Below are positions 2,203-59,006 of a stretch of 64,000 nucleotides of DNA, piece by piece; within the stretch, counting starts at the first letter, position 1, and the number at the start of each line of letters is the position of its first letter. The position numbers were made by a program, and so were the translations under genes. Source of the DNA: an uncultured Methanosarcinaceae archaeon. Its GTDB lineage: Archaea; Halobacteriota; Methanosarcinia; Methanosarcinales; Methanosarcinaceae. Under the pieces are notes generated by a model. It was not told the DNA's origin. It searched no databases and saw nothing but the letters and a program-made list of their open reading frames with translations. The stretch lies in NCBI GenBank assembly GCA_963733675.1, contig CAVTET010000004.1, positions 576,001 to 640,000 on the forward strand. Reading direction: 5' to 3'.

Positions 2203-2526
2203 TTAATCTAATCTTTTATAAGGATACCTCATTTCTTTCCCACAATGCTTGCAGAAGATAACGATATATCCTTCATTCAGTCTGTAGCGAGCATTGTTCC
2301 CAGGCACAAGGAAAGCATAGCAGTGTTTACATATCCTGCTTTTGATCTCCCTTGGGATACTAATCCTATTCCTCATAGAAATATTTCTGATGATCTGCAC
2401 ATAGCGTTCACTACGGTCAGGATGTTCTGCGTACTCCATTTCCGCAAGCTCAAAAAGTCGCCACATACGCTGAGTTGCGACATCTTTAATCAGATTTTTC
2501 TGTTGTTTCCTGGACACTCTAGACAT
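2203..2526 (-). CDS. rnp4: Ribonuclease P protein component 4 (Rpp21)
   Basis: Basic 107-aa protein with the Rpp21 zinc ribbon ICKHC...FLVPG.N.R.R...CKHCG. Confidence 0.93.
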   Translation of the reverse strand: MSRVSRKQQKNLIKDVATQRMWRLFELAEMEYAEHPDRSERYVQIIRNISMRNRISIPREIKSRICKHCYAFLVPGNNARYRLNEGYIVIFCKHCGKEMRYPYKRLD

Positions 2527-2594
2527 AGGTAGATTGATCCTGCACTTAGTTCAGTATCACAATTAGATCCCTGGACTTCCCCAAAAACTAGAAC

Positions 2595-3281
2595 TCAAGA
2601 ATCAAGAATAATCACTTTAATATCAGGGTTCTTGCCTTGCACAAAAGTTTTAAACTTTTCGGGATTTCCATTTGTACCCTCTAATTTTCCGTAATGCATT
2701 GGAATTGCAACCTTTGGGGATATGACTGCGACTGCACTGGCAGCCTCTTCCTCGTCCATAGTATAAGTTCCCCCGATGGGTAAAAGAGACACATCTGCCC
2801 TGATGCTCTTCATCTCAGGGAAAAAATCGCAGTCTCCTACATGATAGATCCGAATTTTCCCAAGTTCCACTACATAACCTACTCCAAAACCTCGTGGATG
2901 GTAAGGTTTATTGAGATTATAAGAAGGAAGTACCTCAATCCGGACCCCTTTAATTTCAACCCCTTCAGCAAAGATATCTCCCTCCACAACTCGCCTTGTA
3001 TAACCCCTGAATTTTAGAGAACAGCTTTCAGGGATCAGGGTAGTTGAGTCAGAGCGTTGTACTTTTTGAATATCTTCAGGGCTGCAATGGTCAAAGTGCT
3101 CATGAGTGATAAGGAGGATATCTGCCTTGTTATCAAAAGAAGGTTCTTTATTGATCTGAAACGGATCAATATAAATTTTGATATCTTGCCATCCAAGAAA
3201 AAAACCAGCGTGTCCTAGCCATCGAATGCAAACGTTGTCAATTGTTATACTATTCATATCATACACCTTTTTGATCTTCAA
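2595..3281 (-). CDS. MBL-fold metallo-hydrolase (UPF0173-like)
   Basis: Motifs WLGHAGF, IYIDP, THEHFDH, YHVGD, LPIGG and PMHYG. The true start may be the Met at 3260. Confidence 0.9.
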   Translation of the reverse strand: MKIKKVYDMNSITIDNVCIRWLGHAGFFLGWQDIKIYIDPFQINKEPSFDNKADILLITHEHFDHCSPEDIQKVQRSDSTTLIPESCSLKFRGYTRRVVEGDIFAEGVEIKGVRIEVLPSYNLNKPYHPRGFGVGYVVELGKIRIYHVGDCDFFPEMKSIRADVSLLPIGGTYTMDEEEAASAVAVISPKVAIPMHYGKLEGTNGNPEKFKTFVQGKNPDIKVIILDS

Positions 3282-4962: not shown

Positions 4963-5037
4963 TGCTCCGATGGGGATTTGAACCCCAGTCTCAGGAGTGA
5001 GAGTCCTGAATGATTGGCCGAGCTACACTATCGGAGC
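4963..5037 (-). tRNA. tRNA-Glu (CTC)
   Basis: The reverse complement folds as a cloverleaf: GCTCCGA/TCGGAGC acceptor stem, CAGGA-CT-CTC-AC-TCCTG anticodon arm, GGTTCAAATCC T arm. CCA is not encoded. Confidence 0.97.
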
Positions 5038-48384: not shown

Positions 48385-49965
48385 TCAGAGCATTTTAGAA
48401 GTCAGTATTTCCATATCAGCCGGTATTTTAGCAAGATTGCCAATTTTTATACCTATGAGGCTTTTAATTGCGTTGCTTGAAGCAATATCTACAAGTCTCT
48501 GCGTAATTACACCATCAAAAACGACACTTAAAACATCATCTTTATAGGCCTTTAATCTGCTGGCAAGATCACGGACTGCAATTTCTTCTACCACCTTGTC
48601 CTCAGGATCCAAAATCCTAGCTGTGAGAGTCCCTTTAAGAGCTTCGACGTGAGGCCTGAACCTGAGAGCTTCAGGAGAAACAGAAGCTATCCTTGTCGGT
48701 GCAGGAGAAACTCTGACAGCCTCGCCCCCAGGAACCTTCATGGCTGAAACCTTATCATCTAGAGGTTTTCCTCTCTGGACTCTGGCTTTTTGAGATGGCC
48801 TAGACAAAACTGTGGAGTTTGCGACAACAGGTCTTGTATCTACTGTTTCTGTTAAGAGAAACTCTTTCCCAGAGACTTTTTCGAAGGTTTTTTTGGGAAG
48901 CTTTTCAGTAATTTTTTCATGAACCTCTTCAAATATTTGTCCATAACCTTCTCCCTCCGTCTCTTCTTCCTTCGGAAATTTTTCTCCATAAGAATCTGAT
49001 ATTGAGGAGACCCTGTGGATCTTAACACGCTTGTGCAGCTTCTTCTCGGCAATTCTTGGAACAAGTTCGGGTGCCCTAATCTTCCTTTTTGGAATTCTTT
49101 CAACCCTGCAGGCGTCTTCTTCTACTTCCCTTTCCTGAATTCCATATTTTTCGATAATCTGTTCCACTGGAACCTTTCGGCGAAGGGCTCTAATAATTTC
49201 CTTCTGGACAAGGTCCTCCACACACTTCCCATCTGGAGCACGAGCAACATAGTCAATATCTGCTACCTGCAAAAGCTCACGAACGATTAGCTCGCCTCCG
49301 CGATCACCATCAGTAAAAGCAGTTACGGTCTTCTTTTTAGTAAGATCTGCAACCTCAGGAGGAATATTTGTTCCACTCACACAAATAGTGTTCTTTATAC
49401 CATAGCGGAGAAGATTCAGGATGTCGGCCCTCCCCTCAACAATAATAATGGCATCTGAATTAAGAACATTCGGCCCACAGGGAATTTTGGACTTCCCATA
49501 ATAAGTAAGCTCGTCAACCCTTACAGACTGCCGGACTTCATCAGCAAGTTCCTGTGATTCAGGCACAGTTTCATCAAACATTTTGGTGAAGATAAGTTTT
49601 GCCCTTTCAATGATCTTTTTGCGCTTTACAGCTCTTACATCTTCTACTTGGAAGACCTCAATTTTAGCGCTGCAAGGACCTACCCTATCAATAGTTTCGA
49701 GAGATGCGGCGAGAATGGATGTCTCAACCTTATCAAGGCTTGAGGGGACAAAGATATTTCCTTTGGTCTTCCCCCCTTTAGCAGTAACCATTACCTCTAT
49801 CCTACCAATTCTGCCAGTCTTTTGCAAATCACGCAAATCAAGATCAGCCCCGAGTAATCCTTCAGTCTGGCCAAAAATCGCACCTACGATATCAGGGCGT
49901 TCTATTACACCATCAGCATTAATTTTAGAATGAATAATGTACTTTGTAGTATCCGTATTTTGCAT
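48385..49965 (-). CDS. dnaG: Archaeal DnaG (TOPRIM; exosome-associated)
   Basis: [27 protein letters not shown] and DGDRGG, and C-terminal FDGVITQRL, with a long charged linker. Confidence 0.96.
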
Positions 49966-50179
49966 GTAAATTCTCCTGGAAATATTGTGAATAAATTATC
50001 ATGAGCAATTTTTCAAATTAACTCCTAAATGAAATTGATTAAGTATCTTGAACAATTACGATATAACTGATATTCTGGGCTTTAATCCATTTCCCTTAAG
50101 ATACAAAACTACCTTCTATACATGAAAACTCGTAAAGGTTCAGACAATGCAAAAATAGTAAAAAATCAGATTTTATACC

Positions 50180-50667
50180 AAATCAGAGATAGTACACCCT
50201 TGAAGAAGCAGATTTAAGAATTAATACAGCTACAACCGGAAAGATAACTCCAACTCTGCCTTCAATACCATCATTACCTGTGCCAGGAGATATTATTCCG
50301 GAGGACGTCCGAATGACTCTATGTAATGGAAATCTTACCTCATGAAAACCAGGTAAATTGCCAGCCCAGCTACCTTGAATATATACACTCCTAACTTTTC
50401 GAGCCGACAGAAAATAACTTTCGAGCCAAGCACCCAATAATACCTGCGATATCCCTGAGGTTTTCTATACATGCCCGAAAGCCCTCGCCCTAACATAAGT
50501 TTTCATTTGTGAACCTGAAATAATCTTCAGAGTCAGAAGCCAAGACTTGTGTTCGTCTTCGATGCCCGATAACTGAAATTTTTCATAAATAACCCTGACA
50601 GCGGGTAATCCGTGCGTGAGCATCAAAAGAGTGCCAAACGCCTCATCCCGCAAACGAGGAACTCCCT
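50180..50667 (-). ncRNA. Candidate ~490-nt structured non-coding RNA (or structured dnaG leader)
   Basis: GC-enriched island with no credible ORF. It has multiple nested helices whose non-Watson-Crick positions are G-U on the minus strand, a TATA-like TTTTATTTA ~22-29 nt upstream, and T tracts downstream. Confidence 0.55.
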
Positions 50668-51146
50668 AACGATAAGTGGTAAAGTAGTAAATAAAATGCA
50701 TCATTTTTATTGATAGCACGCTTTTACTTTAACTTCATGGGTGATGAGTATGAATTCTAACTTCACATGGTTAATTTAGCCTGATTAGGTACATATATAA
50801 ATCTAAAATTTGTAGATTTGCATGCGAATTATTTAAATTAAGTTGTCTTTACGAATTTAGCAATGATGAATGATAAAGTTGTTAATTGATATGACCTCAA
50901 TTTGATACGACCTGACAGCACAGATTCTGCCCACCTTTAAAGGAATTTTGGCAAAACAGATACCCTACATATCACACGTTTTAAATCCTTGTATTTAATG
51001 CCTCCAGGATTTAAGAACTTTGTGGTTATAAAAAGTCCAATACAATCTAGTCATTTTCTGTAAACGATGTCTTTTAAAAGAGTCAACTTTCAGAACAACT
51101 ATCGAGTAGATTCAGAAATTGTAAAAAATGATATATTCGATAAACT

Positions 51147-51165
51147 TAGAAAGGTATATATAAAA
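51147..51165 (+). promoter_or_regulatory. BRE/TATA promoter with no downstream CDS (sRNA promoter)
   Basis: AGAAAGG-TATATATAAAA, with the TATA box beginning 28 nt before the stem at 51183. Confidence 0.6.
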
Positions 51166-51182
51166 CAAAATACTTGTAAAAA

Positions 51183-51260
51183 GTTGAACGGGCGAGCCAT
51201 ATAAACTTTTTTATGTACTAACCCCCCACTCCCAAACTCGCTCGTTCAACCACTCATTTA
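51183..51260 (+). ncRNA. Candidate small regulatory RNA with a C-rich loop
   Basis: 14-bp closing stem GTTGAACGGGCGAG (51183-96) / CTCGCTCGTTCAAC (51237-50) with one G-U pair. It encloses an AU hairpin and the single-stranded AACCCCCCACTCCC. Confidence 0.65.
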
Positions 51261-51479
51261 ATAATAGCGTCATTGAAATTCAATTATAGAGTATTTATAG
51301 AGTATTAATACTTGCACAGCTTCTTATCAATAGAAATAGATTCATAGTTTAATAGATTCATAGTTTTATTTGACATGAAAGTATATGAGTCAAATTTCCT
51401 ACATACTCTCGCCTTCCTCTTCCTCTATAATTGTGATTTCTACTATCATTTATCATACTTCATCAACCGAAAAAGTTTC

Positions 51480-52870
51480 AATCCCAACAATTCTTCTTTT
51501 TTGAATTCTCCCTTTTCATGTAAGTTTTCATCTTCGTATATCTCGTCATTTGTAACCAGATGCCATAAAATTGGAGCAATTTTTCTTGCTAGAGCAATAT
51601 TGTCTTTGCATGTCCAATTGATTTCTTCTTTAGGTTAAAAATTCTTTTAATTTGCTATTTTTCTTCCTTGCTGCTGCCTGAGCAATTTGTGTTAGGATCC
51701 CCCCACTCCCTTTGATCATCTTTTTGCGTTGCTACAATTTTAAAATTTATCTGCATATTGGTATACATTTAGAATTATTCCAAGCCAAGAAGCAAGTCTA
51801 TCTATTTATTTAATAAAAATTCTTGAATTACAGATTTAAGCATTAAAGTTGCTGCACCAATTCCTCCAATACAAGAAACTGACATTAAAATACTCATTTT
51901 TAGTTCATGTTTCCTATGAGCATAATTAAAGATTTATTTTTTCAAAGCTTGTATTTCATGGTCAAGATGCCTTATAAAATCTAGGCATATCTGAAGCCTC
52001 AATGAAATACTTTTGAGATATTTATCTGTCCAGAATCTCCTTTTCTGAGCATTTTTAGGAATATTTGGAGGAAGGTTCTCTTTATTACTTAGTCAAATGT
52101 TTTCACACAAGAGATTACTGATAACATTATACTATACGACTTTTACCAAAAATATCTGTCAGCACATTATCTAGATTATAACACATCAGATGCTAGAATA
52201 ACATTGCTTCATTTTCAATAGCTTCTATTTTTGTTACAAGTATGTAGAATCCAAATTTATGAATGAAACTTTTTGACCTTTTGGAAAAACATTTGATGGC
52301 TGATCATCCTATTAAAGTGCAAATTGTACAATGAATTCAGAACCTACTTTCTATCTTTTTATGGGTAAATACCTTCATATTTCGTGTATTCCCAACTATA
52401 TATAATTATATGCTTTATCAATGAATTATACTTAGAACTCCAAAAGTCACTTGTTGATTCACATGCAAAAAAATCACATTTTTCTGATATGTCCAACTTT
52501 TAAGAGCTAAAATTTCATCATAATCTCTAGCGAACCGTTGCAGCGGTTTTTTACCGGATACACTGAGGATATTAGAAATGAAAAAACATTTGTAAATGTC
52601 TAAACCATAAGAATAACTTACCGTTTCTGCCAATTCAGACCACTCAATTTGTTTAGGTAGTGGAGTTACCCCAAAGGTAGCTTAGCATCCGTGATCAAAG
52701 TCATATTTAAGCTTCAATTGAAACTCACGCATTAGTTTCGAGAAGTTTTGGAAAATCAAAATTAGAACAAATTTCCTGCCTAAAATAACGATGGAGCTAA
52801 TGTTCAAAAAAGATTCATATGAAGCATATTTTCATTTATTTGAGCTTGTTATTCGAAAAATTTAGTATTT
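51480..52870 (-). mobile_element. Decayed IS110-family element with upstream non-coding end
   Basis: N-terminal remnant GLDIYK.FF...SGKK.LQRF.RD.DEILALKSW, plus LASWLGI, IAQAAAR and IALARKIA.ILWHL, with many stops. Confidence 0.82.
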
Positions 52871-52899
52871 GTTTTTAGTGTAATTTGAGTATTAAGTTC

Positions 52900-53510
52900 G
52901 TTTCAGTCGAATACCCCGCATCTTGCTACAGGTATGGAGACTTCCTCGAGAATCATGATTATCTAATTTTGATATATTTTTAGCCACTTTTGTTCTCTGA
53001 AATGGAAACAGATCTAAACAATTGTGTCTATGAAATAGGATACAACATGGTTTTTTTGTATGAAGTATTGGGAAAATTTTTTTAGATAACGACATCACCA
53101 ACTATTTAAAAATATATATGCTTTGAGATTGGTAAAAGGTACCATTTTGATTTTGATGTAGTAGGTACTGATAGTGATTTTGTGCATCTTGTCGTTGGCG
53201 CTGAACCAAAATATTCATCCTCAATAGTGATGCAGATTATAAAAAGTATCACAGAAAAAAAAATCTTTAAATTAATACTCTGAGATCAAAAAAGCTTTTT
53301 GGTTGTTAAATCTGGAGTGATGGAAGTTATATTGGAACTGTTGATGATGGTGCAACTTCCGACATTATTATAAAAATATTTCGGATTTCAGGAAACTAGG
53401 AAGAAAATGCATTATAGGAGCAAATCAAAGTATTTGATTTTGAGTAATTCCTTTATATCCAAAGCTTGGGATCTCGCATACTCCGTTGCTTGCAATGGGG
53501 TGCTAAACAG
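52900..53510 (+). mobile_element. Decayed IS200 tnpA element with both end hairpins
   Basis: Left hairpin ataccccgcatcttgctacagg, TnpA remnants VGTDSDFVHLVVGAEPKYS and WSDGSYIGTV, right hairpin ctccgttgcttgcaatgggg. Confidence 0.78.
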
Positions 53511-54301
53511 CAAATTTAATTTTCCAAGCCTTAAACAGTTAAATTTTTTTAATCAATAACCACAATTTGTTCATTTGTTTAATTGCCATTTGAGTATTCC
53601 ATATTGCTCCTTACATTTTGAAAGATGAGCATTATATAAATTAACTCTTGATTTAAGGTAAAACTTTGTGATATTATAATAATCATTAAAGTTTAGATCA
53701 AGTTCTCAGATTCGGATTCTACATCTGATTTAATTTTATTACATTCCAATATTTCCCCCTTTAAAATGTAGTTATCCTATTATATTTTTTCCTCTTTATA
53801 TTTAGAAATTCAATTTTAATATTTTACTCTGAGGTTATTATGAAACGTCCTTGATCCAATTTAGAGTCTTTGGTATAATTGGTGTCATCAATATAATTAT
53901 CGTATGAAATTCAAGTATACAAGCAAGATATTTATTCTAATTTCCATAAAAATCATGAGAAACTTTGACAGTAATGGTTCTTTCTGACAGCTTGCTAAAT
54001 GATGTGATATGATTGTAAATAAATAAAGAATAAGTCTTATTTTTTCATCTTACTACCCTTTATAAGTAATGATACTGTTGTATACAAGGATAAAGTAAAT
54101 AGAAGAATTCTTTTCTGAATATAAGCATTCTTTCCTGGATAAAACATTTGTTTCTAAATAATTATAATATATATGTGCACATATACCTCCAAGCTTGATA
54201 AAACCTTTATTTACTTTATAAAGCTTGAATATACCTCTTAGCTTTATAAAATTCTGTAACGAAAAGCAAAAGATTTATGCTAAAAACTCATTTAACACTG
54301 C

Positions 54302-57299: not shown

Positions 57300-59006
57300 A
57301 TGACAAGCTTTAGGGAATTTGCAGAAACCTGCCAGGCAATTGAAAAAATTTCAAGTACTATAGACACTACAAATAGGGTTGCTGACCTTCTTATGAAGGT
57401 CAGCGTAGAAGAGCTTCCCCTCGCAACTCATTTTATTATGAGTGAGGTTTTTCCAACCTGGAGTGGAGAGCAGCTTGGAATTGGCACAAGCCTTCTATAT
57501 GCTTCTCTTTCCAAGGCTTCCGGAATGTCTATAAGAAGTATAGAGTCTCTTGTCCGGACAACAGGAGATATAGGAGACACAGCACTTCTTATCCTAAAAG
57601 AAAAACAAAAAAACCAGATCACTTTTTCTTCTTTCCTCGAAGACCAGCCAGAACTCTCTATAACGGAAGTCTACCAGCGCTTCAAAACGGCTTCCGAAGC
57701 ATTTGGAAAAGGGTCACAGGAAGTTAAGATCAAAAATCTTCAATTCCTCTTTAATTCCTCAACCCCAAGGGAAGCAAAGTATATATCCAGGCTTGCACTT
57801 GAAGAACTCCGCATAGGGGTCGGAGAAGGAGTTTTAAGGGATGCCATCGCAAAAGCCTTTTCCGTCCCTGCAGATTTGGTAGAGCACGCTTTTATGGTAA
57901 CAAACGATCTCGGGATAGTCGCTGCAACTGCAAAAAAAGAAGGTATTGAAGGTCTCAACGGCCTCGGGATCAAAATTAACCGTCCCATAAAGATGATGCT
58001 CTCGCAGATCAGTCCTGATATAGATACAGATATAAGAGAAATGAAAGAAGCTGCAATTGAATGGAAATTCGACGGTGCAAGGGTCCAGATTCACAAGGCT
58101 GGAAACTCGGTTACAATTTATTCACGAAAACTTGAAAATGTCACAAATTCCCTTCCAGACCTTGTTGAAATTATTCGAAAGCATGTTAAAGCCGAATATG
58201 CAATTCTTGATGGGGAAGCTGTTGCAGTGGATGAAAAAGGAAAACCAAGAGCTTTCCAGGAAATCCTTAAACGTTTCCGGCGCAAGTACGATGTAGGGGA
58301 AAAAATACTTGGAATCCCTATCCAGCTAAATCTCTTTGATATCATGTACTTTAACGGCAGAACATTGATTGACCTTAATCTTCGTGAGCGACGAAAGGTA
58401 CTTGAGTCCTGCATAGAGAGCTCAACTGAAGATTCAAAGTCCATTTCTGTTGATAAGCAGGTGATAACTGGAGACCTTGAGGTTGTGGAAAAGATCTATA
58501 GGAAAGCCTTGAAAGCCGGTCATGAGGGTGTAATGGTCAAAAATCCGAATTCGGTTTATTCCCCTGGTAAACGCGGTAAGAACTGGCTTAAGAAAAAACC
58601 CCTTATGGAAACCCTTGATCTTGTAGTAGTTGGAGCTGAGTGGGGCTTTGGCAGGCGTGTAAGCCTCATAGGTTCTTACACTGTTGCCTGTTATGATCCC
58701 GAAAATTCTAATTTTTTGCAGGTCGGCAAGGTTGGAACAGGCCTGAATGACGAAAACCTAAAGGAGCTCACAGAAATGCTTTCTGGACTGATAGACGGCG
58801 GAGAAGCAGGTGGGGTATTTGCAGTAAGACCTAAAATTGTTCTGGAAATTGCCTTTGAGGAAATCCAGAAAAGCCCCAATTATAACTCTGGTTTTGCACT
58901 TCGTTTTCCCCGATTTATCCGTATCCGGGATGATAAAGATCCCGAAGAAGCGGATACAATCCAGAGAATTGAAAAGGCATACAACCAGCAGCTTAAAAGG
59001 CTTTAA
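57300..59006 (+). CDS. lig: ATP-dependent DNA ligase
   Basis: Motif [29 protein letters not shown] and LRFPRF. Confidence 0.97.

Follow-up and report, generated by a model that had tools for sequence, protein, structure and literature searches.

To our knowledge very few cis-regulatory RNAs are known in archaea. In Escherichia coli the genes of two RNA-decay enzymes, polynucleotide phosphorylase (PNPase) and RNase E, are preceded by autoregulatory leaders (the pnp and rne leader, respectively), and the archaeal exosome is a PNPase-like complex. Long-range helices are familiar in archaea from the processing stems of ribosomal RNA (rRNA), with bulge-helix-bulge sites and circular intermediates. 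For the 5’ untranslated regions (UTRs) of the methanogen Methanolobus psychrophilus a median length of 55 nt and a maximum of 497 nt have been reported (PMC5378194). Here we describe a leader upstream of dnaG, the gene of an archaeal exosome cap subunit, in a stretch of 64,000 nt from an uncultured Methanosarcinaceae archaeon (contig CAVTET010000004.1, positions 576,001 to 640,000), to which we refer as the window. By homology the leader is ~1,040 nt long; a genus-wide leader of ~1 kb is about twice the length of the longest 5’ UTR reported for the related methanogen.

In the window dnaG is located on the minus strand at 48385–49965. Its 526 aa product, the coding sequence of which starts with AUGCAAAA, reaches 562.9 bits with the NCBIfam model NF003108 “DNA primase DnaG” (cut-off 300) and contains a Toprim domain (Pfam). 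A first-pass annotation had proposed a highly structured non-coding RNA (ncRNA) of ~490 nt at 50180–50667, either standing alone with a start near 50665 or forming part of a ~700-nt regulatory leader of dnaG. We found that the flagged DNA is real, conserved across the genus Methanosarcina and non-coding, and that it is not a gene. On balance we lean towards reading it as the interior of a ~1,040-nt untranslated dnaG leader that would serve as a cis-regulatory attenuator or translation switch, by a mechanism that we infer. Because the ends of the leader pair over a transcription stop signal, the leader probably controls the amount of DnaG.

Conservation of the region upstream of dnaG

As described in the first-pass annotation, the flagged region is a GC island in AT-rich DNA: in 200-nt windows between 50200 and 50699 the GC content is 0.395–0.445, compared to 0.27–0.295 at 49900–50199 and 0.275 at 50700–50899. 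Of 24 other genomes of the genus, 23 contained a match to a 651-nt query around the region (66–91% identity), compared to none of 16 genomes representing other families of the order at the DNA level. With a longer query of 1,161 nt (50100–51260) matches were obtained in 58 of 59 genus genomes, the window’s own included, and the single genome without a match is a 60%-complete assembly. Sequence conservation upstream of dnaG is in this sense genus-wide. In most loci alignable DNA reaches from dnaG to 51248–51263 and ends there, with only the closest relatives aligning further. The conserved non-coding block of ~1.3 kb is larger than the 490 nt initially flagged and has a sharp edge at about 51250. 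Leader length varies between ~1.05 and 1.3 kb across the genus at an identity of 66–77%, and indels are frequent and not in threes. The element is syntenic with dnaG in all 70 loci having both anchors and single-copy, with one match in the window’s genome. We found no published description of this dnaG leader in the literature; supplementary lists of transcription start sites, small RNAs or Term-seq ends may contain it.

The 70 loci with both anchors yielded 54 distinct leaders, from which we assembled an alignment of 49 sequences (A1); the five most divergent leaders (L060, L061, L062, L065, L093) were left out. Column identity over the flagged region is 0.56–0.87 per 20-nt bin, with values of 0.25–0.46 across a lineage-specific insertion (50425–50386). 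The poorly conserved stretch of the minus strand directly before dnaG (49966–50126) shows 0.56–0.69 at 50125–50006 and 0.82–0.95 at the ribosome-binding site, with the Shine-Dalgarno sequence GGAG at 49976–49973, and at the start. The T tracts noticed earlier at 50151–50165 are real and lie among the most conserved columns of the alignment. The most conserved alignment block is formed by the TATA box CTTTTTATAACC of the leader promoter and the invariant spacer ACCACAAAGTTCTTAA following it (51024–51035, minus strand). It comprises the invariant columns A17–G41 and is kept in distant lineages with a diverged center (matches to 51034–50979 of the window).

Transcription of the leader in a related species

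RNA data were analyzed for a complete genome of the same genus (G041, locus L101). Sixteen runs recorded as RNA, originating from six studies, contain all sampled words of a 2.3-kb stretch of G041. We evaluated roughly a quarter of the reads of X24, a stranded paired RNA run, and two short-insert runs (X21 and X22). A run consisting of contigs (X9) was uninformative, as one contig of 6,848 nt spans everything. The sense strand of X24 was fixed because the dnaG coding region is covered 152–534x in one orientation vs 0.5–14x on the other strand; over transcribed leader and coding region together the antisense depth is 0.5–30.

On the dnaG-sense (minus) strand the depth is 3–6 beyond L101 position 3094, 116 at 3017–3093 and 618–1189 at 2401–3016. 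It then amounts to 592 at 2324–2400, 347 at 2247–2323, 243 at 2170–2246 and about 195 down to the ATG at 1986. Sense depth is continuous from ~3065 to this ATG and on into the coding region. The depth decreases from about 970 to about 240 across the conserved U-tracts (77-nt bins, one condition), the homologue of which (L101 2256–2241, window 50165–50151) is located inside the zone of the fall, and the first ~830 nt of the leader are 3–5 times more abundant than the dnaG coding region. This fits the 3’ boundary proposed near 50160. At the homologue of the proposed 5’ boundary (50667), by contrast, no depth step was found, and the TATA-like TTTTATTTA at 50688–50696 suggested as its promoter is unconserved, with RNA depth changing by at most ~20% between adjacent G041 bins.

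The furthest RNA 5’ ends in G041 are located at L101 3062 and 3065 (5 molecules each), 35–47 nt downstream of the TATA box TTTTAAATAA (L101 3109–3100). By homology and by the distance to the TATA box we predict the transcription start in the window at 50998–51008 (near 51003) on the minus strand, ~335 nt further upstream than the start of the supposed stand-alone RNA. The window leader would accordingly extend from ~51003 to 49966, and the leader-derived RNA would measure ~840 nt. In G041 the leader is ~1,090 nt long, is transcribed from a promoter located about 1.05 kb before the ATG, and is untranslated; here the element is the 5’ leader of dnaG. The initial alternative of a dnaG leader is thereby supported by the continuous sense depth in G041, while its length of ~700 nt falls short of the ~1,040 nt expected by homology. 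The stranded reads and the coding tests described below also confirm that the element is a dnaG-sense, non-coding element of the minus strand.

Runs X21 and X22 contain inserts of ~30 nt, with ~120 of 151 letters being adaptor, and show 5’ peaks 14–15 nt before the AUG. Judging by the length of the inserts and the start-codon peak, they probably represent ribosome footprints. Their depth is 7–36x in the dnaG coding region vs 0–3.4x in the leader, i.e. 10–30 times lower in the latter.

The abundance of the leader RNA would also agree with a stand-alone, trans-acting ncRNA of ~830 nt, for instance an exosome scaffold or decoy, with dnaG using its own promoter past the U-tracts and the read-through being incidental. 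The spacer from the U-tracts to dnaG is the least conserved part, and the depth in the coding region climbs again to 400–534, as would be expected in this case. However, the depth between U-tracts and ATG (193–243) is continuous with that of the early coding region (152–254) and no strong 5’ end is listed there. Moreover, the element is always found beside dnaG in the 70 syntenic loci and is not repeated in the window’s genome. We regard a stand-alone RNA as rather unlikely and favor a leader that is transcribed together with dnaG.

Pairing between the two ends of the leader

The best-conserved blocks of the leader lie at its two ends and are inverted copies of each other. We refer to the predicted pairing between them as the clamp. 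Its 5’ half, located at 50799–50857 on the minus strand, is A-rich and contains segment a (AAUUCGUAAAG, 50857–50847), segment b (AUGCAAA, 50823–50817) and segment c (UUAGAUUU, 50806–50799). The 3’ half (50127–50173, minus strand) begins with c’ (AAAUCUGA, 50173–50166), which directly precedes U6 (50165–50160). It is followed by U5 (50155–50151), which runs into b’ (UUUUGCAU, 50154–50147), and by a’ (CUUUACGAGUU, 50137–50127). Segments a and c pair with the whole of a’ and c’, segment b with 50153–50147. The three segment pairs are nested and close a domain of ~620 nt, and the spacing of the blocks is constant at 650–775 nt. The flagged region at 50180–50667 is the interior of this domain on the minus strand: moderately conserved, untranslated and equipped with several small conserved hairpins. 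The clamp itself is placed at or beyond the limits of the flagged coordinates.

In A1 the 26 clamp pairs are paired in 96.5% of 1269 cells, compared to 24.7–53.3% when the partner is slid by 1–3 columns. Changes on both sides occur in 4 pairs (7 cells) vs 1–2 pairs in the slid controls. None of 500 shuffles reached the observed value on four of five measures, and 15 of 500 did so on the fifth. Out of 131 variant cells 87 remain paired. Among the clamp cells we counted 99 G.U or U.G vs 7 A.C or C.A combinations, which argues that selection has acted on the dnaG-sense RNA and not on the DNA.

This asymmetry bears on the question whether the inverted blocks act as DNA, either as sites of a looping regulator or as the ends of an ancient immobilized mobile element, the RNA pairing being a by-product. 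About 700 bp separate the blocks, which are imperfect inverted repeats, and the neighboring module at 51140–51250 (see below) is operator-like and present in multiple copies in some genomes, both of which would suit such a role. Yet a preponderance of 99 to 7 is not expected of a DNA palindrome, and the transcribed strand is the one permitting the wobbles. A mobile element is further at odds with the single-copy, syntenic occurrence in 58 of 59 genomes, and a Pfam scan (E≤1) detected no transposase remnant, in agreement with the first-pass annotation, which had recognized no insertion sequence (IS) remnant. We consider a role at the DNA level very improbable. A miniature inverted-repeat transposable element (MITE) or IS remnant was rejected as a candidate in its own right, since neither several copies nor a variable location was found.

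To compare the clamp with other possible pairings, RNAduplex was run on the 52 of 54 leaders in which the strict anchor motifs were found. In all 52 the 5’ block pairs better with the 3’ block than with any of 57–77 other windows of sequence. The median energy of the clamp is −32.5 kcal/mol, compared to a median of −22.4 for the strongest of the other windows and of −16.3 for shuffled sequence. The predicted clamp duplex has a median of 45 bp, and a median of 75% of the U-tract uridines (range 50–92%) are paired in it. The divergent lineages left out of A1 keep the segment order a, b ... c’, b’, a’ with duplexes of −39.5 to −47.3, and the clamp is kept where the interior no longer aligns. It also appears in both the minimum free energy (MFE) and the centroid fold of the window’s 884-nt RNA. 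The case for the clamp rests on the nested triple of segments, the best-partner result, the survival beyond the diverged interior and the wobble asymmetry.

These same results have to be weighed against a long leader without special function, in which low divergence or isolated promoter and terminator signals would explain the conservation, and chance complementarity of A-rich and U-rich sequence the clamp. Blocks of A/U-rich, low-complexity sequence readily find a pairing partner, the reverse strand has no fewer conserved 7-bp complementarities, and structure conservation index as well as z-scores are low (see below). Against this, ~1.05–1.3 kb have been kept at 66–77% identity while the DNA just beyond 51250 cannot be aligned, and neither a best partner in 52 of 52 leaders that persists where the interior has diverged nor the strong excess of wobbles speaks for chance. 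A functionless leader appears improbable to us.

Excision or circularization via the clamp was considered and rejected: the table of read joints remained empty in G041 at depths up to about 1190 (X24; one run, one condition).

A further observation concerns the sequence (C/U)CUGAU, which recurs in highly conserved blocks at 50712–50704 (AAACCUGAU), 50190–50184 (CCCUGAU) and 50173–50165 (AAAUCUGAU). Each copy could pair with UCAG of clamp segment c. The CCCUGA just upstream of c’ can form a local hairpin with UCAAGGG (50203–50197/50188–50183, 94–95% paired) or pair with a distant UCAGGG beside segment c (50784–50779/50188–50183, 95% paired). These pairings could constitute a second set of look-alike competitors and part of a switch.

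A complement of the dnaG start within the clamp

Segment b’ is exactly complementary to the dnaG start (49965–49958). The 8 pairs are formed in 391 of 391 cells, and the two variable positions change only to wobble pairs. Since segment b, the clamp partner of b’, has the same sequence as the dnaG start, pairing of b’ with b and pairing with the start codon are both compatible with all 49 sequences and indistinguishable. Since the clamp includes the sequence of the dnaG start as well as the complement of that sequence, it is tied to dnaG, which is a further point against a stand-alone RNA.

In 36 of 37 further loci the start reads ATGCAAAA. Outside the genus, 15 of 31 loci carry the complementary 8-mer no more than 420 nt ahead of dnaG. 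In the Methanolobus loci L074, L084 and L090 its distance to the ATG is 57–67 nt, and it is embedded in a similar U-rich motif. A clamp partner in Methanolobus and other genera was not significant vs shuffles: outside the genus (13 loci) the best b’ partner reached −34.5 vs −28.2 for the shuffled best, but also −31.9 vs −36.3. A 23-mer covering the U-tracts and b’ is found once in the window’s genome, with one further site showing 3 differences. Upstream of dnaG in the three Methanolobus loci we also observed, at 50–110 nt and hence much nearer to the ATG, a short version of the 3’ block, CTGATTTT..CTATTTTTGCAT, which points to the Methanosarcina leader as the enlarged form of an element common to the family.

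Secondary structure of the leader interior

The first-pass annotation had called the region highly structured. Using dinucleotide shuffles of the flagged span as controls, we found a minus-strand MFE of −134.4 vs −133.9 ± 6.0 kcal/mol (z −0.09), with 53 of 100 shuffles folding as well. The plus strand gave a z of −2.37, yet there is almost no plus-strand RNA in G041. Single-sequence folding was consequently discarded as evidence for this span, and the description as highly structured does not hold. The same applies to the excess of G.U pairs in the single sequence, which had been taken as a sign of selection: the minus strand is G+U-rich in composition, so this asymmetry is uninformative on its own. 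Sliding-window consensus folding (17 of 49 sequences) did not reveal a global conserved fold.

Of the eight helices drawn by eye, CUGAA/UUCAG (50530/50515) is retained in 44 of 49 sequences with 89% of cells paired. The other seven are poorly conserved: allowing one unpaired position, six of them are retained in 22, 24, 26, 22, 8 and 8 of 49 sequences, and CAUUAC/GUAAUG in 4 of 49, with 29% of cells paired. The duplication reported for the motif GGCUCGAAA(A)GUUA is lineage-specific, since the ~23-nt insertion that contains the second copy is shared by 5 of the 49 aligned sequences.

Eight small helices were instead predicted from the alignment and tested together on the same alignment, so that the test leans their way. 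Their 54 pairs are paired in 89.1% of 2604 cells vs 36–52% when slid. Both sides have changed in 28 pairs (83 cells) vs 9–19 pairs (17–48 cells) in the slid controls, and 0 of 500 shuffles reached the observed values on four measures and 1 of 500 on the fifth. The minus strand carries a 5’ hairpin UCUGUUUGCC/GGUGGGCAGA at 50926–50960 (10 pairs, 88.7% paired, 2 pairs with changes on both sides). Further conserved helices predicted from the alignment are located at 50643–38/50617–12, 50607–03/50594–90, 50534–27/50518–11 (8 bp, containing CUGAA/UUCAG), 50483–77/50422–16, 50261–55/50212–06, 50252–48/50241–37 and 50203–197/50188–83. Covariation in 28 of the 54 interior pairs is also what a stand-alone ncRNA would lead one to expect and counts in its favor. 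Regarding a riboswitch, several small hairpins covary but no ligand-binding core is definable.

Known RNA families and coding potential

The window was scanned with the Rfam covariance models, as a whole at gathering thresholds and between 49900 and 51200 permissively at E≤10. At gathering thresholds the only hit in the 64,000 nt was a tRNA (4963–5037). The permissive scan gave four hits with E-values of 2.6–9.6 and 14–18 bits, compared to gathering scores of 35–53.5. The island thus matches no Rfam family, including signal recognition particle (SRP) RNA, RNase P RNA, group II intron, riboswitches, OLE, GOLLD and ROOL; the first-pass annotation had likewise not recognized it as SRP RNA, RNase P RNA or a group II intron.

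Two minus-strand frames of 66 aa and 93 aa are separated by nothing but one in-frame TAG and together amount to 160 open codons. Because Methanosarcina is reported to be able to read UAG as pyrrolysine (PMC13663744), we checked whether this frame is coding. A decayed or recoded protein gene, i.e. a pyrrolysine TAG open reading frame (ORF) or small upstream ORFs, would account for the open frame in the window. The 160-aa read-through product, however, has no Pfam match at E≤1. At least 120 open codons are found in only 1 of 49 homologues, the window’s own, even with TAG as sense; the longest open frame has a median of 53 aa, and length differences modulo 3 are split 13/19/17. Footprint-like reads in the leader are 10–30 times below those in dnaG despite the higher RNA level. 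A protein gene, pseudogene or pyrrolysine ORF was rejected on these grounds and is close to refuted, and the statement of the first-pass annotation that there is no plausible protein stands.

Two further readings of the conserved blocks were dropped without formal test. The interior is GC-richer and not an AT-rich unwinding element, as would be expected for an origin of replication with origin recognition boxes (ORB), and for a C/D-box RNA the box spacing would be ~530 nt.

Neighboring DNA

At the outer edge of conservation, outside the leader, a divergent promoter/operator module of ~110 nt is located on the plus strand (51140–51250). It contains a perfect TATA box (51154–51165) and a 14-nt inverted repeat (51183–51196/51237–51250) with a conserved 40-nt spacer. 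In the G041 homologue (L101 3208–3318) a strong plus-strand RNA 5’ end (197 molecules) is found at 3264 between the arms, and a ~290-nt plus-strand RNA runs to a Pyr_redox_2 gene. Other genomes carry extra copies of the module before unrelated genes (e.g. 7 in G020), among them genes for a PocR sensor, a crystallin-fold protein and a signal-peptide peptidase. The first 25 nt of the module are also present upstream of dnaG in other genera. The module looks like a portable promoter/operator.

Beyond it, at 51260–54300, ~3 kb of AT-rich DNA (GC 0.25–0.37) contain no ORF of at least 90 aa and align only with the closest relative. By eye it resembles the remains of small genes or insertion sequences. 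A DNA ligase gene (57300–59006) is located 7 kb from the leader in the window. In ten single- or two-contig genomes (G004, G007, G013, G015, G043, G044, G047, G048, G074, G041) the leader is found 22–34 kb from the end of the main contig, and in five others (G045, G046, G060, G061, G073) elsewhere. The nearness to contig ends may reflect where assemblies were opened.

Proposed mechanism

aCPSF1 has been reported to bind the U-tracts of archaeal terminators with an affinity related to the number of U-tracts (PMC8716108). With the clamp closed, the U-tracts of the dnaG leader would be hidden from this termination factor and the anti-start 8-mer would be occupied. RNA polymerase could then read through and the dnaG AUG would be free, corresponding to an ON state. 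With the clamp open, exposure of the U-tracts would lead to termination there and to the abundant ~830-nt leader RNA, the OFF state; in RNA that is nevertheless read through, the 8-mer could pair with the start codon. The opposite polarity may apply if c/c’ serves as a terminator-like stem before U6.

DnaG is reported to prefer poly(rA) (PMC4227792). A candidate opener of the clamp would be the A-rich-RNA-binding DnaG/exosome cap, acting on the A-rich 5’ block and resulting in negative autoregulation. Taken to its full extent, the leader would be an autoregulatory exosome sensor, in which DnaG opens the 45-bp clamp, aCPSF1 terminates transcription and the 8-mer shuts the AUG. We think this specific version unlikely. 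If true, it would represent a two-level switch of termination and translation, operated by a distant RNA pairing that masks archaeal U-tracts. We know of no archaeal example of attenuation in which U-tract terminators are masked by distant pairing.

Several points weigh against a regulatory leader closed by the clamp. All RNA evidence comes from another species with a leader that is 68% identical over about 800 nt, and consists of one partially read stranded run and two short-insert runs. The 5’ end is backed by only 5 + 5 molecules, the 3’ end was deduced from a gradual fall in 77-nt bins, and a separate dnaG promoter may exist downstream of the U-tracts. The structure conservation index is 0–0.27 in 150-column windows on both strands (17 of 49 sequences), and the 884-nt RNA folds with a z of −1.70, 1 of 20 shuffles folding as well. 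Conserved complementarities of at least 7 bp (at least 95% paired) number 4 on this strand and 5 on the reverse complement (column shuffles: 0), and because the reverse strand holds as many, single stems were not used as evidence. Compensatory events are limited to 7 cells, given the near-invariance of the six clamp segments, and the clamp was derived from the same sequences, inflating the comparison with the slid controls. Finally, the anti-start pairing is only 8 bp long and its start side is fixed by the coding sequence and cannot covary.

How archaea could attenuate transcription is of interest because their terminators are U-tracts read by aCPSF1 and not hairpins. The protein encoded behind the dnaG leader is a subunit of the main RNA-decay machine, and the leader is present in genetically tractable laboratory species. 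If the clamp controls termination, it would offer a simple model for the control of aCPSF1-dependent termination by RNA structure.

Comparison with known systems

Among the described systems, the long 5’ UTRs of Methanosarcinales, known from differential RNA sequencing maps of Methanolobus psychrophilus and Methanosarcina mazei, resemble the dnaG leader in being untranslated, co-transcribed from an upstream TATA promoter and proposed to act post-transcriptionally (PMC5378194). The dnaG leader differs from them in its length of ~1,040–1,090 nt, its genus-wide occurrence, the putative internal U-tract stop and the long-range clamp. It shares with bacterial attenuators and riboswitch leaders a putative premature stop resulting in an abundant short RNA and a read-through mRNA, and with bacterial start-site sequestration a complement of the start that has an upstream competitor identical to the start. 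Unlike in bacterial attenuators, archaeal termination relies on U-tracts and aCPSF1 rather than on a hairpin-dependent intrinsic terminator, and the putative “anti-terminator” of the dnaG leader would be a 45-bp duplex across ~700 nt hiding the U-tracts. In contrast to riboswitch leaders, it has neither a ligand-binding core nor an Rfam family.

The leader also resembles archaeal rRNA processing stems, as inverted blocks flank a domain of several hundred nt and pair over tens of bp. However, no spliced or back-spliced reads were present in G041 at about 1000x depth, and by eye, with no formal search, we saw no canonical bulge-helix-bulge motif (3 nt, 4 bp, 3 nt). With the pnp and rne leaders it has in common that a long leader stands before the gene for a subunit of the main 3’-5’ RNA-decay machine, and that a duplex within it might either shield or uncover the message. 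No RNase III step is involved, and the likeness is to be taken as an analogy only.

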